Origin: Halalkalibacterium halodurans
Lineage (GTDB): Bacteria > Bacillota > Bacilli > Bacillales > Bacillaceae_D
DNA: 32,000 nt
Direction: 5' to 3'
NCBI RefSeq assembly: GCF_004376175.1
Contig: NZ_SNUY01000007.1
Coordinates: 30,001-62,000 of the forward strand
Shown here: piece by piece, positions 10,977 to 17,120 of the stretch
How positions within the stretch are numbered: position 1 is the first letter of the stretch
How the letters are laid out: every line of letters begins with the position of its first letter
Notes under the pieces: generated by a model
Seen by the model: only the letters and a program-made list of their open reading frames with translations
What the model was told of the DNA's origin: nothing
Database searches by the model: none
Translations under genes and position numbers: made by a program

Positions 10977-13900
10977 CTATTCGTTACATTCCCGTGCCTT
11001 GCTCTTCTTCCCCTTCTTATCTTTCTTTGCCTTTTTTGAACATTCACTTCTGTTCAATTGGACGGGGACATGGAAATCATCCACGTTGATATGACCCCAA
11101 CCACCGGTCGCATGATCCACGATTAAAATATAACTTTCAGTACCTATATAATCAGAAGCATCCCAGTGCACCCTGTAATAAGCTTCATTGTTTCCTCCTG
11201 TTGCTTTTTTCAACATTTTTCCGTCCGATTCCCGAACGAGAGCGACATAGAGATCATATATATTGTCTCCTCCTGAAACTAAAAAGTTGATCTGGCCGTT
11301 CCCACCAAGCGTGAAAGTCTCGGAACGCATCGCCCCCGTTTGTGAATCATCGCCTGTCGTTAAGCTCCACAGGTGGTAGGTTCCTACATGATTAAATGGC
11401 CCTCCCCACCCCCAATCGGTTCGATCCGTCACATCATCAGGACTGAACGCATCACCGTAAAGGATCGTCCAACCTTCCAGCCCCTTTTCAAAGCTAGGAT
11501 TTGTAAGGTTACCAGTTGGAGGAGGATCGACGACAACAATATCAGTACTAGCTTCATGCCCTCCATCCCTCGTTTTTGCCGTAATCGAAACAGACCCTGA
11601 TGCATGAGCTGTTACTCGCCCGTTCGTAACAGTCGCCACCGAAGGATCACTTGAGGTCCAAATGACATCCTTATTGGTTGCTTGCTGCGGGGAAACAATA
11701 GGTGTGACGTATTGTTCGGTTCCCGCCATCATCTCCTCTTTTTCACGGTTCAACTCAAGACCTGTGACCGATACGTCTTGATAGGCCGAATTCATTTCCC
11801 ACACCTTCATAGACTTCACGATGACGGAATCTTCATGGTCATTGGCCCACAACTGGACACCCGTTGCGTCTGGCCTTGTCGGATAGGCTCTCGTTGTAAT
11901 GTTTTGCAGACCGTTCAAGTACGCTTCAATCATCGAGCGGTCGAGGAAGACCCTCATGTTCATCTGCTCTCCGCCAAGATCAACCTGACCTCCTTGATAC
12001 CATCCTTCCAAGTCACGATTCAAGCTCGAGCTTGTGCGATCAACCCAAAACTCCTTCGCGCTTTTTTTATAATAAAGGATCGTTTCCTCTTCCCCGTCAG
12101 GCGTCCTCCTGACACTTAGACCGGCCTCATTCGCTTGCCCGTGATCGAGCTCTAGCTCAATTTCGAGCATATCTCCTTGAATTTGAGAAAGAATCTCGTT
12201 CGCTTCAGCAAATGGCGTATCTTCCGTTATTTCTACTAATAGATCGCCTCGAAGCGATTCCACTTCCTCAATTGGTTCCATCCCGAGACGATTATCGTCA
12301 CGGAGGTAGACATGAATCGGTAGACCAAAATTGTGAGCATAACCTGAATCATAATCAATTAACGCCGTTCGCCTTCCTTGGGCAATGCTATAAATAACCG
12401 TTCGCCCATCTGGTGTGACAAAGCCTGCTGGTCCTGTAAAATGATCACCAAAATCAAGTAATTTCGGCTCTTCATCGTCTGGAATGAACCTTGCCTTTTC
12501 CTTATCCCATGTTCCGATCCAATACCACGTATAGCGAGATTGGAATTGCTCTTCTTCCATTTTCGCTGGGTTAATAAGCAAAATATGCTTTCCGCTATCC
12601 CCTAGTGGTAGAAAGATCGGTAGCTCCCACACACGTCCAGTCTTCGGGTATTTTTCGAAATCGCCAACGTATAAGTATCCGCGGTACTCCCACTCTTCAA
12701 AGCTCGAATCCTCAGTCGAATAGACAAGCGCCGTTCCCCCTACTGGGTCGCCCTGTTCGGTTTCCACTCCTGACGTAATGAGCATGAACCACGTATCGCC
12801 ATCTTTAAACAGAAACGGATCACGAAACTCTCCTAAAATGCCTTGACCAGGCTCTTGGTCTAAAAGAACCTCAGGATGCTTTTCCCAGCGATTTAAATCG
12901 AGGTCACCATCTTTGACAAACGTGCTTCGTGCAATGTTAATCCTCTGATTCGGCGTACGACGGTCATCACCCGCGGTATAAAAGATGACTGGGTTTCCAT
13001 CATCATCAATGACCGCATCTCCGGCCCATGCTCCATCTGGATCTACATCGTGCCTCCCTGGAATGACAGCATCACGGGCATCTCGCCAATGAATCATATC
13101 ATCACTTACTAAATGCCCCCAGCGAATATGGTTCCAGTAAGGGCCACGAGGGTTGCTCTGATAAAACACGTGGTATTGTCCATTAAAATAAAACGGACCA
13201 CCCGGCTCATTTTGCCAGTGAACAGGCGGAGCTGCATGATATTGCGGACGGTGCGGATCATTTGCCAAAATACTACGATCGATGCGCATATTAGGGGTCG
13301 GCAAGTTCCCACCGACTTGGTCGAGATACCGCTCATATTCTTGTTGAACCTCCTCAGGAGATAGAGCCCGACCTCTTAGCTTCACCTCATCTAAAAGGCC
13401 GCTAAACATGTTGAGCGTGAAGCCGTACAACCACATTCCTTGGTTGTTCTTAGCGATTTTTAACGGCGTTGCGCTCGGCTTAATCAACGTCCCTTTCGGA
13501 AAATCACGCGAGGCTACCTTTTCTCCATTTAAATAAAGAACTACTTCCCCTGTCGAGCTTCGATAAGTAGCTGTAATGTACGACCATTCTTCAAGCGGAA
13601 GGACAACATCTGACATCACTTCAAACCAATCATCGCCTGTCCCAAACTGCAAGCCCCACGTGCCGTGACGGTAATGCCCGAAAATGAAGCCCTCCTTCTT
13701 CTCTCGATCATGCTGGTTCATAATCGCAGACAAACGTCCCTCATCCCCGTGCTCGAAATTTCTTGGTGCCACCCAAGCCTCAAGCGTGATCTCGTCTTCA
13801 GGAACGGGGATATGATGAGGCGGACTCTCGATCCATGTGGAGTAACCGTCAAACAACAGCGTCCCGTTTTCAATCCCATCATTTCTCCACATCGGATCAC

Positions 13901-16900: not shown

Positions 16901-17120
16901 GGTACTCTCCATCAAGGTACACCATTCCATTCGGGTCGTTCATCCAGTTTTGTTCAGGTGTAAAATGAAATTGGGGCCGGTATTTTTCATCATAATAATC
17001 CAAAGAACCGCTCCCTTCTGCTTCCACATCCCCACTTGCACGAACATCTAACAACGGTTGGCTTAACATCAATAAAATCAGCAACACAATCAACCATCGA
17101 TTAGGTGAACCTCTTTTCAT
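10977..17120 (-). CDS. Giant secreted multidomain fructanase with two GH32 catalytic domains (exo-type plus LamG-linked Glu-nucleophile type), four copies of an unassigned ~150-aa module, Big_2 and a Lys-rich tail
   Basis: The start is moved from the track's 17174 to the ATG at 17120 (AAGGAGA 9 nt upstream), giving the signal peptide MKRGSPNRWLIVLLILLMLSQPLLDVRA.

Domain map on the minus strand:
- GH32 #1 plus beta-sandwich, ~16990-15546 (WMNDPNG 16946-16926, FRDPKVF, WECTDL).
- Modules M1-M3, 15449-14034.
- LamG, ~14015-13325.
- GH32 #2 plus beta-sandwich, ~13260-11780 (HWQNEPGGP with Glu codon 13208-13206, FRDPFLF, VWELPIFL).
- Big_2, ~11775-11530 (IWTSSDPSVATVTNGRVTAHASGSVSITA).
- Module M4, 11503-11061.
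- Tail SECSKKAKKDKKGKKSKARECNE. Confidence 0.9.
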   Translation of the reverse strand: MKRGSPNRWLIVLLILLMLSQPLLDVRASGDVEAEGSGSLDYYDEKYRPQFHFTPEQNWMNDPNGMVYLDGEYHLFYQHNPTETVWGPMYWGHAISTDLVNWEHQPIALYPDEHGFIWSGSAVVDEKNTSGFQSGETPVLVAIFTYEFGQDHQTVGLAYSNDKGRTWETYEGNPVIEMPDEAKVSNGGDGVFRDPKVFWHEESNEWRMVIATGKQADFYSSPDLREWTKEGRFETPEINGDLGIWECTDLIKLPVNKQGNEHKWVLITSVANGPTGSQGMGYFIGDFDGAHFTPDEEEIRWLDFGPDMYAGVTWSNAPDDRLLLLGWMSTPHYGGETPTDPWRSAMTVPRELSLKEVDDELVLTQTPVKELQSLRGKKRSWSDQSVSSSNELLAEAEGDTLEIIAEIDWTKTTANELGFHVRKGEGEWTAVGIDRTENNVYVDRTQSGEVHFHPDFAAKHLAPFHEEETVKVHLLVDRSSVEVFFNEGEVVFTEQIFPDHDSLGVELFGDEGEIYVKNLEIYPLSQAEFIPSYPQEFKRSFGIDPSEINVAELPNDIENPDFETGDLTGWTTFGSAFEGVITDQKEYWGGRFGHQGSYHLWGFAGANEERADVRAGMMTSSLFKLGGDGTIRFRIGGGEDEERLYVALVRASDGKELFRATGHNDERYQQVTWDASDYLGEAMFLKVVDRHSGGFGHINLDDIQVFNQEKKEGPYEMENPSFETGDLTGWTVVRGDAFSDGAVTDEADYWNKQPFKQNNLWHIWGGRGDDSKVGVMRSQTFTLGGDGQIDFLIGGDEDIENLYVALVRAEDGEVVMKETGHGNDTYRRVHWDVSAYVDDVYYIEIVDQSTEGHLNLDDVNVPPTASLHGNVEPGIFNHDFEYTALHPDRIRGWEVVSGDAYGPESLVRDTHWSDGGTFDQAGDYHLWGFKAAGDEATGELHSSPFVLSGNGGIDFLIGGGDDIENLYVALVRVADGEELFRATGRNSETYQRVFWDASAYVGEEVYIKIVDDATGPWGHINVDDFNVYNSTFSRELLGHWSFDEQEGKHTKEQVTGRKQRIHYFLNEGKYQPPRDPMWRNDGIENGTLLFDGYSTWIESPPHHIPVPEDEITLEAWVAPRNFEHGDEGRLSAIMNQHDREKKEGFIFGHYRHGTWGLQFGTGDDWFEVMSDVVLPLEEWSYITATYRSSTGEVVLYLNGEKVASRDFPKGTLIKPSATPLKIAKNNQGMWLYGFTLNMFSGLLDEVKLRGRALSPEEVQQEYERYLDQVGGNLPTPNMRIDRSILANDPHRPQYHAAPPVHWQNEPGGPFYFNGQYHVFYQSNPRGPYWNHIRWGHLVSDDMIHWRDARDAVIPGRHDVDPDGAWAGDAVIDDDGNPVIFYTAGDDRRTPNQRINIARSTFVKDGDLDLNRWEKHPEVLLDQEPGQGILGEFRDPFLFKDGDTWFMLITSGVETEQGDPVGGTALVYSTEDSSFEEWEYRGYLYVGDFEKYPKTGRVWELPIFLPLGDSGKHILLINPAKMEEEQFQSRYTWYWIGTWDKEKARFIPDDEEPKLLDFGDHFTGPAGFVTPDGRTVIYSIAQGRRTALIDYDSGYAHNFGLPIHVYLRDDNRLGMEPIEEVESLRGDLLVEITEDTPFAEANEILSQIQGDMLEIELELDHGQANEAGLSVRRTPDGEEETILYYKKSAKEFWVDRTSSSLNRDLEGWYQGGQVDLGGEQMNMRVFLDRSMIEAYLNGLQNITTRAYPTRPDATGVQLWANDHEDSVIVKSMKVWEMNSAYQDVSVTGLELNREKEEMMAGTEQYVTPIVSPQQATNKDVIWTSSDPSVATVTNGRVTAHASGSVSITAKTRDGGHEASTDIVVVDPPPTGNLTNPSFEKGLEGWTILYGDAFSPDDVTDRTDWGWGGPFNHVGTYHLWSLTTGDDSQTGAMRSETFTLGGNGQINFLVSGGDNIYDLYVALVRESDGKMLKKATGGNNEAYYRVHWDASDYIGTESYILIVDHATGGWGHINVDDFHVPVQLNRSECSKKAKKDKKGKKSKARECNE
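11061..11503 (-). repeat. Intragenic module copy M4 (C-terminal, after Big_2)
   Basis: TNPSFEKGLEGWT...YHLWS...FTLGGNGQINFLVSGGDNIYDLYVALVRESDGKML.KATGGNNEAYYRVHWDASDYIGT...IVDHATGGWGHINVDDFHVP. Confidence 0.7.
14034..14495 (-). repeat. Intragenic module copy M3
   Basis: FNHDFEY...IRGWEVV...YHLWGF...FVLSGNGGIDFLIGGGDDIENLYVALVRVADGEELFRATGRNSETYQRVFWDASAYVGE...IVDDATGPWGHINVDDFNVYN. Confidence 0.7.
14535..14969 (-). repeat. Intragenic module copy M2
   Basis: ENPSFETGDLTGWT...WHIWGG...FTLGGDGQIDFLIGGDEDIENLYVALVRAEDGE...TGHGNDTYRRVHWDVSAYVDD...IVDQSTEGHLNLDDVNVP. Confidence 0.7.
14999..15449 (-). repeat. Intragenic module copy M1 (~150 aa, putative carbohydrate-binding beta-sandwich, family unassigned)
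   Basis: ENPDFETGDLTGWT...YHLWG...FKLGGDGTIRFRIGGGEDEERLYVALVR..DGKELF.ATGHNDERYQQVTWDASDYLGE...VVD...GGFGHINLDDIQVFN. Confidence 0.7.

Follow-up and report, generated by a model that had tools for sequence, protein, structure and literature searches.

Caldicellulosiruptor CelA, a bicatalytic endo- plus exo-acting hydrolase of layout GH9-CBM3x3-GH48, carries two complementary catalytic modules and several carbohydrate-binding modules (CBMs) on one secreted chain, with synergy through proximity. In GH32, the catalytic nucleophile can be aspartate or glutamate. Endo-inulinase INU2 of Aspergillus ficuum (structures 3rwk and 3sc7), with the triad E43/D176/E233, established glutamate in this role, and its E43D variant keeps about 5% activity (PMC3829992; see also PMC6042768). 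The bacterial endo-inulinase EnIA of Arthrobacter sp. S37 (EC 3.2.1.7), the 75-kDa product of a 2,439-bp gene, has the triad E323/D460/E519 and yields inulotriose to inulopentaose (PMC5984348). The cycloinulo-oligosaccharide fructanotransferases (CFTases) of Paenibacillus macerans, Paenibacillus polymyxa and Bacillus circulans are large secreted GH32 proteins that act on inulin and have flanking repeats and one catalytic unit. Residues 32-389 of the P. macerans CFTase define CBM38, which consists of two beta-sandwiches and binds inulin and levan (PMC10076258). Here we describe a gene in a 32,000-nucleotide stretch of Halalkalibacterium halodurans DNA (contig NZ_SNUY01000007.1, positions 30,001 to 62,000; hereafter the window) whose 2,047-amino-acid (aa) product, the giant protein, combines two GH32 units with repeat modules. 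CelA is built from other families and acts on another substrate, whereas both catalytic modules of the giant protein come from one glycoside hydrolase family. On balance, homology and gene context incline us to regard the giant protein as a secreted bicatalytic endo-plus-exo depolymerase of inulin-type fructan equipped with CBM38-type modules.

The gene and its two GH32 units

A stop-free frame spans 10977..17174 on the minus strand (open reading frame [ORF] list and translation). The ATG at 17120 is preceded by a stretch bearing a ribosome-binding site, AAAAGGAGATGG / AAAAGGAG, and opens the 2,047-aa product, whose N terminus, MKRGSPNRWLIVLLILLMLSQPLLDVRA/S, reads as a Sec signal peptide. The two GH32 units are designated GH32D (Asp type) and GH32E (Glu type), and the repeat modules REP1 to REP4.

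10977..17120, minus strand: whole gene for the 2,047-aa secreted bicatalytic GH32 protein; stop codon at 10977-10979 (ORF list, translation)
17034..17120, minus strand: putative signal peptide, residues 1 to about 29, MKRGSPNRWLIVLLILLMLSQPLLDVRA before S; read from the sequence and kept in orthologues
15504..17009, minus strand: GH32D, exo-type propeller and beta-sandwich, residues 38-539 (Pfam, hidden Markov model [HMM], PDB matches)
16935-16937, 16539-16541 and 16383-16385, minus strand: GH32D catalytic residues D62, D194 and E246
15003..15464, minus strand: REP1, residues 553-706, a beta-jelly-roll of about 150 aa, CBM38-like and putatively fructan binding
14535..14984, minus strand: REP2, residues 713-862, apparent recombination junction of two parental lineages
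14037..14492, minus strand: REP3, residues 877-1028
13296..13994, minus strand: LamG (Laminin_G_3), residues 1043-1275, Pfam core 1091-1259; always directly before a Glu-type GH32 unit
11766..13313, minus strand: GH32E, propeller and beta-sandwich with Glu nucleophile, residues 1270-1785 (Pfam, HMM, model)
13206-13208, 12819-12821 and 12624-12626, minus strand: GH32E catalytic residues E1305, D1434 and E1499
11547..11768, minus strand: Big_2 Ig-like spacer, residues 1785-1858 (Pfam)
11064..11510, minus strand: REP4, residues 1871-2019
10980..11054, minus strand: basic Cys-flanked tail NRSECSKKAKKDKKGKKSKARECNE, residues 2023-2047, lineage-specific

A preliminary description of the window had proposed a single secreted polypeptide with two GH32 domains, and this proposal stands: one uninterrupted ORF, with a ribosome-binding site and a signal peptide, encodes two HMM-complete units. 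The order it gave was also recovered, namely GH32D, three repeats of about 150 aa, LamG, GH32E with its own beta-sandwich, Big_2, a fourth repeat and a short basic tail. The Pfam scan returned two stretches each of Glyco_hydro_32N (1.4e-147) and Glyco_hydro_32C (2.2e-69), with Laminin_G_3 at residues 1091-1259 and Big_2 at 1785-1858. An HMM of about 520 positions, made from the window's own GH32 domains, matched residues 38-539 (model positions 14-520) and 1270-1785 (model positions 3-519). This coverage is close to end to end, and each unit therefore has a propeller and a beta-sandwich.

Unfused genes for GH32D and LamG-GH32E adjoin in some genomes, which raises the question of whether the ORF could be an assembly or annotation artefact joining two neighbors. 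The frame, however, runs for 6.1 kb without a stop codon, and the product is identical over its full length to NCBI entry TES56775.1/WP_134228882.1 from H. halodurans, which is labeled only as a "hypothetical protein" or "GH32 C-terminal domain-containing protein." Copies of 2,047 aa and 99.0-99.6% identity occur in two more H. halodurans assemblies, in one of them on a 4.31-Mb contig, and copies of 2,025 aa and 96% identity in Salipaludibacillus agaradhaerens (4.36 Mb) and two Bacillus sp. isolates (4.38 and 4.42 Mb). The full-length protein is thus present in at least five independent assemblies, single contigs of 4.3-4.4 Mb among them. Consecutive accession numbers show the same gene order, and the same reading frame is held by the H. 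flavus orthologue (78% identical) and by dozens of remoter ones. The assembly fusion that the preliminary description had wished to see checked was rejected on the strength of these independent assemblies and the conserved gene order, and we give an artefact practically no credence.

All of the motifs quoted in the preliminary description were present at verified coordinates. In GH32D these are WMNDPNG (D62), FRDP (D194) and WECT (E246), and the D/D/E triad is unvarying in 66 homologous Asp-type domains. The best Pfam stretches are residues 52-362 for the five-bladed propeller (PF00251) and 370-522 for the beta-sandwich (PF08244). The WMNDPNG/FRDP/WEC spelling is shared, as had been pointed out, with the cytoplasmic GH32 enzyme of the locus (23987-25510), to which GH32D is 49% identical.

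The best PDB match of GH32D was exo-inulinase InuAMN8 (8i12, 355 bits); the exo-inulinase of Aspergillus awamori (1y4w) scored 340 bits, endo-inulinase INU2 (3rwk) 323 bits and endolevanase LevB1 (9h8i) 238 bits. Four residues, T100, G196, V234 and D298, are listed as unique to INU2 (PMC6042768). At the first three of these, which are the positions mapped in the HMMER alignment, GH32D has S, K and C, and the S and C at positions 100 and 234 are the residues of the two exo-inulinases; its nucleophile is Asp. InuAMN8 and the A. awamori enzyme thus resemble GH32D in WMNDPNG, RDP, WEC and these two residues, but they are single-domain proteins of about 520 aa that lack CBMs and a second catalytic unit. 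Match scores and residues together support, short of proof, an exo-inulinase/exo-levanase type of action for GH32D.

GH32E corresponds to the second stretches of PF00251 and PF08244 and carries RPQYH, WQNEPGG (E1305), FRDPFLF (D1434) and WELP (E1499). Alignment with the window's other GH32 domains placed a Glu at the nucleophile position instead of the expected Asp. The E/D/E triad is unvarying in 79 homologous Glu-type domains, and the AlphaFold2 model of the unit superposes on GH32 structures (TMt 0.7-0.8). When the LamG-GH32E model was searched with Foldseek, all GH32 structures scored alike, so that endo action was not discriminated from exo action or hydrolase from transferase.

At first glance the Asp-to-Glu change looks like a lesion, and in one homologue (P0045) the first unit, residues ~41-437, has WLGIPNG in place of WMNDPNG and has lost its nucleophile Asp. 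One unit of the giant protein might by analogy be catalytically dead and serve only in lectin-like binding. This is very unlikely, because E/D/E is found in all 79 Glu-type and D/D/E in all 66 Asp-type domains. Since experiments on INU2 and EnIA have proved Glu to be their nucleophile, the substitution is no defect, and conservation and literature led us to discard it as the mark of a dead domain. The triad loss that the preliminary description had named as a check is therefore not seen in either unit, and both GH32 units are very probably active catalysts.

GH32E belongs to a clade of LamG-GH32 proteins with a Glu nucleophile, together with CFTase-annotated proteins and two window paralogues of 760-819 aa, orf760 and orf819. 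These paralogues share its LamG+GH32 layout, NEP motif and WELP and are 48% and 52% identical to it, respectively. The Glu nucleophile, the RDP Asp and the Glu acid/base are common to EnIA and GH32E, and the LamG domain (residues 1043-1275) directly precedes the GH32E propeller, as in an EnIA-type layout. EnIA has an N-terminal extension of about 300 aa before its propeller, and its numbering (2,439 bp; E323/D460/E519) is close to that of orf819 (819 aa; E314/D448/E510). EnIA differs in being a single-domain protein of about 75 kDa, whereas the giant protein's unit is fused to an exo-type GH32 and four repeats and belongs to a separate subclade with the motif W[QG]NEPGG; the comparison was made by published residue numbers and gene length. 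GH32E is not of the INU2 type: it matches 3rwk at 81 bits as against 185 bits for 7vco, has WQNEPGG rather than WMNEPNG, and falls in a different deep clade from the fungal WMNEPNG domains.

Repeat modules and architectures of homologues

The four REP modules are 44-53% identical in pairwise comparisons. Pfam and NCBIfam assigned them to no family, with only a subthreshold CBM_4_9 match at the N-terminal NPxFE motif, and the PDB sequence search gave only a weak match to 8xmz; typing was therefore possible by fold alone. (PF22847, which appears in precomputed Pfam lists, was set aside as a faint and uninformative Glyco_hydro_43_rel match.) The AlphaFold2 model of REP4 is a beta-sandwich (predicted local distance difference test score, 73; predicted TM score, 0.76). 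Its Foldseek neighbors were a porphyran-binding CBM (8xmz), CBM16, CBM4, CBM61 and CBM22, with E values of ~1e-5 and TM scores of ~0.6.

REP modules also lie at residues 69-231 and 254-384 of a 1,321-aa Paenibacillus cluster (P0063), one member of which is annotated as a CFTase by one source and whose layout is REP-REP-LamG-GH32(Glu)-REP. By this positional match, REP most likely represents the CBM38 unit. Residues 713-2019 of the giant protein repeat the CFTase-type layout as REP-LamG-GH32-REP, with REP as the putative CBM38. The CFTase-annotated proteins, however, carry WMNEAHA and form a clade phylogenetically apart from GH32E. The basic tail noted in the preliminary description is present in the giant protein but is not a general component: neither the S. 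agaradhaerens orthologue (96% identical) nor the class A orthologue of H. flavus (P0002) has it, which makes it a lineage-specific appendage.

To see how common the design is, we surveyed the 120 best homologue clusters at 90% identity. An Asp-type and a Glu-type GH32 unit were paired in 64 of them, from Bacillales, haloarchaea and fungi and in either order. Besides these, two clusters had a variant or degenerate first-unit motif and two had two Asp-type units. The preliminary description had treated two GH32 propellers in one chain as exceptional; the database check it suggested shows instead a widespread design, and "GH32+CBM38xN+GH32" had earlier been reported, uncharacterized, from Tetracladium and other Leotiomycetes in a dbCAN survey. 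Six architectures were distinguished.

Class A: GH32D-REP3-LamG-GH32E-Big2-REP, the giant protein and H. flavus
Class B: REP2-LamG-GH32E-Big2-REP2-GH32D(-REP), Paenibacillus, Cohnella, Guptibacillus and others
Class C: GH32D-REP1-4-LamG-GH32E-REP, some with an extra N-terminal REP, many Bacillaceae
Class D: minimal GH32D-LamG-GH32E
Class E: LamG-GH32E-GH32D, haloarchaea
Class F: GH32D with REP inserts, then an INU2-like WMNEPNG unit, fungi

The fungal proteins, of about 1,400 aa, show the same functional pairing of an Asp-type GH32 with REP-like inserts and an INU2-like unit. INU2, like the fungal Glu-type unit, is only a remote relative of the Glu-type unit of bacteria. Bacteria and fungi therefore came to the pairing independently, and the Asp+Glu combination has arisen more than once. 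In Paenibacillus zeirhizosphaerae (L009), separate adjoining genes encode GH32D (549 aa), LamG-GH32E (760 aa) and a CFTase-like REP2-LamG-GH32E-REP protein (1,310 aa), likely a prefusion state. In Bacteroidota and Actinomycetota, the long matches of the genome scan turned out to be single GH32 genes lying next to each other, with no fusion, and were excluded.

Several other arrangements were encountered in the survey. Many single GH32 proteins (P0092-P0120, L021-L039 and the fungal P0079-P0091) have REP-like modules inserted within the GH32 domain, with the HMM match split at ~215-285. Eight consecutive REP modules occur in P0046 and P0048, and the 3,369-aa P0118 has two Asp-type GH32 units with inserts in each.

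Locus, substrate and proposed mechanism

The giant gene lies at the end of an apparent utilization operon and faces a convergent gene array.

17278..19545, minus strand: orf760, LamG-GH32E paralogue (WMNEPHA) with no signal peptide, directly upstream of the giant gene
19734..27581, minus strand: rest of the utilization operon, comprising a solute-binding protein (SBP), DUF624, two ABC permeases, cytoplasmic GH32 (23987-25510), PfkB fructokinase and LacI
8480..10939, plus strand: orf819, LamG-GH32E paralogue with a membrane anchor (E314/D448/E510), downstream of both GH68 genes and convergent with the giant gene
5750..8402, plus strand: two tandem secreted GH68 genes (5750-7051 and 7074-8402), nearest to the haloarchaeal inulosucrase InuHj

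In the direction of transcription, the minus-strand order is LacI, PfkB, cytoplasmic GH32, two ABC permeases, DUF624, a 534-aa SBP, orf760 and the giant gene. A similar core gene set surrounds the class A, B and C relatives that were examined. In classes A and B an orf760-type gene lies directly upstream of the gene for the giant protein's relative, and in P0010 it lies nearby. Counterparts of about 750 aa (L003, 7684-9903; L005, 7563-9827; L004, 17289-19559) lack a signal peptide in all three cases; an "endo-inulinase-type" enzyme in the cytoplasm is unexpected.

Between the orf760 stop codon and the giant gene's ribosome-binding site, at ~17195-17270 on the minus strand, are a GC-rich hairpin, CCCCUGCGGCUUUUGCGGCAGGGG, and a second stem ending in UUUUAUUUU, with a modest fold z of -2.3. 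This may be a terminator or attenuator that puts the giant gene under separate control. A promoter and terminator scan of the gene's flanks gave nothing beyond the shuffle expectation, and folding of the convergent 3' gap gave no significant structure. Two further observations concern neighbors. orf819 has 819 aa here versus 792 aa in another H. halodurans strain, and its C-terminal ~30 residues run past the point where the alignment with its paralogues ends; a shifted stop may be the reason. A MerR-family ORF of 257 aa (4089-4862, minus strand) contains two MerR helix-turn-helix stretches in one protein.

The GH68 genes bear on the substrate. Their products match best, at 406 and 339 bits, the structures 7bj4/7bj5/7bjc, with the next match at ~250-270 bits; these structures are of the inulin-synthesizing InuHj of Halalkalicoccus jeotgali (PMC9350837). 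In S. agaradhaerens, the GH68 enzymes FosA and InuO make inulin-type products, according to Kralj 2018 as cited in PMC8066391. The InuHj-like GH68 proteins and the inulin-acting relatives of the Glu-type unit thus favor a beta-2,1 fructan.

The same endo-plus-exo design could nevertheless serve levan (beta-2,6) or a mixed or branched fructan, a reading that is partly compatible with the one we prefer. The GH68 enzymes of bacilli are commonly levansucrases, matching PDB entries are so named, and endolevanase LevB1 matches GH32D at 238 bits. The GH68 and LamG-GH32E operon of the window also resembles sacB-levB of B. subtilis; the GH68-orf819 array parallels that operon but appears to be for an inulin-type fructan. 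The CBM38 family is likewise reported to bind levan as well as inulin. The inulin-forming InuHj is, however, the best GH68 match by a wide margin (406 versus 252 bits for the next), the S. agaradhaerens GH68 products are of the inulin type in the cited account, and the bacterial Glu-nucleophile enzymes described in the open-access literature, EnIA and CFTase, act on inulin. We therefore consider levan or a mixed fructan rather doubtful as the substrate.

Under the preferred reading, endo-plus-exo breakdown of inulin, the CBM38-type REP modules would hold the enzyme on polymeric beta-2,1 fructan, either plant inulin or inulin that the two neighboring inulosucrase-like GH68 enzymes form from sucrose. 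The Glu-type LamG-GH32E unit would cut the chain internally, as do endo-inulinases that give inulotriose to inulopentaose, and the tethered Asp-type GH32D would trim fructose at the newly made nonreducing ends. The oligosaccharides would then be imported through the Lpl-type ABC importer, and orf760, the cytoplasmic GH32 and fructokinase would complete the breakdown under LacI control. Fusion would provide proximity, each endo cut making substrate for the neighboring exo site; a gain is expected because chain ends are scarce, relative to mass, in high-molecular-weight bacterial inulin. Domain order is free across classes A to E, which speaks for mere closeness on a common polymer and against a fixed interdomain geometry. 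We also count in favor of this mechanism the recurrence of the Asp+Glu pair (64 of the 120 clusters, both orders, three groups), which would point to selection for the pairing. The endo-plus-exo proposal of the preliminary description is thus upheld as regards its structural premises, namely two intact triads, an exo-type GH32D and a Glu nucleophile in an EnIA-like clade for GH32E; the functional part is read from homology and context.

Several observations weigh against this mechanism. GH32E lies in a distinct long-branch W[QG]NEPGG subclade, apart from the WMNEPH[AG] and the CFTase-annotated WMNEAHA clades, and its specificity could therefore differ. Its link to EnIA and CFTase is drawn from published residue numbers, gene length and one source annotation, and among solved structures it comes closest to exo-acting enzymes, with identities of 26% at most. 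INU2 (3rwk) is nearer to GH32D (323 bits) than to GH32E (81 bits), so that a Glu nucleophile is by itself no proof of endo action. As regards the substrate, the reported levan binding of CBM38 (PMC10076258) adds to these points, and the H. flavus orthologue has no GH68 neighbor within the 10 kb seen on each side. A search of the open-access literature found no activity data for any protein of this architecture.

The separate branch also leaves room for a hydrolase-plus-transferase pair, in which the W[QG]NEPGG unit would be a fructotransferase, either cyclizing like CFTase or forming difructose anhydride (DFA), the exo unit would trim leftovers and orf760 would open the imported product. In addition to the long branch, this reading is consistent with the REP-LamG-GH32E-REP layout common to the CFTase-annotated cluster, with the signal-less LamG-GH32E conserved immediately upstream, and with the ordinary WMNEPHA paralogues that such genomes retain, which suggest nonredundant chemistry. 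Moreover, an AraC-GH172-SBP(-permease) module stands next to or 8 kb from the class B gene in two Paenibacillus genomes (L001, 17569-18690; L004, 24743-25864); GH172 includes difructose-anhydride I synthase/hydrolase. No GH172 was found, however, in the window or in the examined Bacillus-type and Halalkalibacter loci, and we dropped it as a general partner of W[QG]NEPGG proteins, retaining it as a minority hypothesis for the two Paenibacillus genomes. The CFTase-annotated proteins belong to another clade with another motif, and around its catalytic residues GH32E has nearly the same motifs as the WMNEPHA paralogues. The inulin fructotransferases known to form DFA are GH91 enzymes, and the nucleophile of the GH32 levan fructotransferase is Asp. 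We regard a transferase as an improbable reading of the giant protein. Less likely still is its more specific form, that the W[QG]NEPGG LamG-GH32 subclade (the giant protein and its class B relatives) is a new GH32 fructotransferase making cyclic or anhydro-fructan from polymeric inulin, with the exo unit, orf760 and the ABC importer forming a pathway to produce, import and reopen the product. If that were true, the Asp+Glu fusion in bacteria, archaea and fungi would mark an unrecognized route of fructan catabolism.

Apparent mosaic origin and significance

The two halves of the giant protein have different closest relatives. Residues 41-861 (GH32D, REP1 and REP2) are 65% identical to a class C protein (P0022) and 47% identical to the GH32D of a class B protein (P0003). 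Conversely, residues 714-2021 (REP2 to REP4) are 65% identical to the N-terminal 1,345 aa of P0003 and 46% identical to P0022. The neighbour-joining trees of the GH32D and GH32E domains, which carry no bootstrap support, conflict in the same way. The two parental matches overlap in REP2, which suggests a crossover inside the repeat module, and the giant protein looks like a recombinant of two bicatalytic lineages joined there.

The locus also looks recently transferred and strain-variable. The copies in S. agaradhaerens, Bacillus sp. A116_S68 and Bacillus sp. A301a_S52 (P0121, P0125 and P0126) are 96% identical over 2,024 aa, and in the genome that represents H. halodurans in GTDB, a scan by exact peptide patterns found no identical copy. 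The high identity between Halalkalibacterium and Salipaludibacillus, together with this absence, points to recent horizontal transfer.

None of the parts of the giant protein is new in kind. GH32D is of the exo-inulinase type, GH32E is a LamG-GH32 of the EnIA/CFTase type with a Glu nucleophile, and CBM38-like modules and Big_2 accompany them; the combination resembles bicatalytic endo-plus-exo enzymes of other families. The sequence is already public, and any domain scan will show the architecture. In the open-access literature we found no characterized natural protein with two GH32 catalytic domains, although a report in a subscription journal is possible; within that literature, the natural two-GH32 fusion, its recurrence in three domains of life, its permuted orders and its mosaic origin have not previously been described. 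To a fructan enzymologist the giant protein should be useful and moderately surprising, and it settles no long-standing question.

Industrial inulin conversion uses mixtures of endo- and exo-inulinases or engineered fusions; here is a natural fusion with putative fructan-binding modules. It offers a test case for intramolecular endo/exo synergy inside one GH family and would give access to the LamG-GH32 Glu-nucleophile clade, for which no solved structure is closer than 26% identity. The apparent recombination in a REP module shows by example how CBM repeats may serve as sites of crossover when catalytic domains are shuffled. In this locus, inulosucrase-like GH68 genes for synthesis are coupled to genes for degradation. 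With 96% identity across two genera of alkaliphilic bacilli, it has the look of a mobile module to make and reuse fructan. That the fusion was made repeatedly, in bacilli, haloarchaea and fungi, is good evidence for a benefit of tethering the two units.

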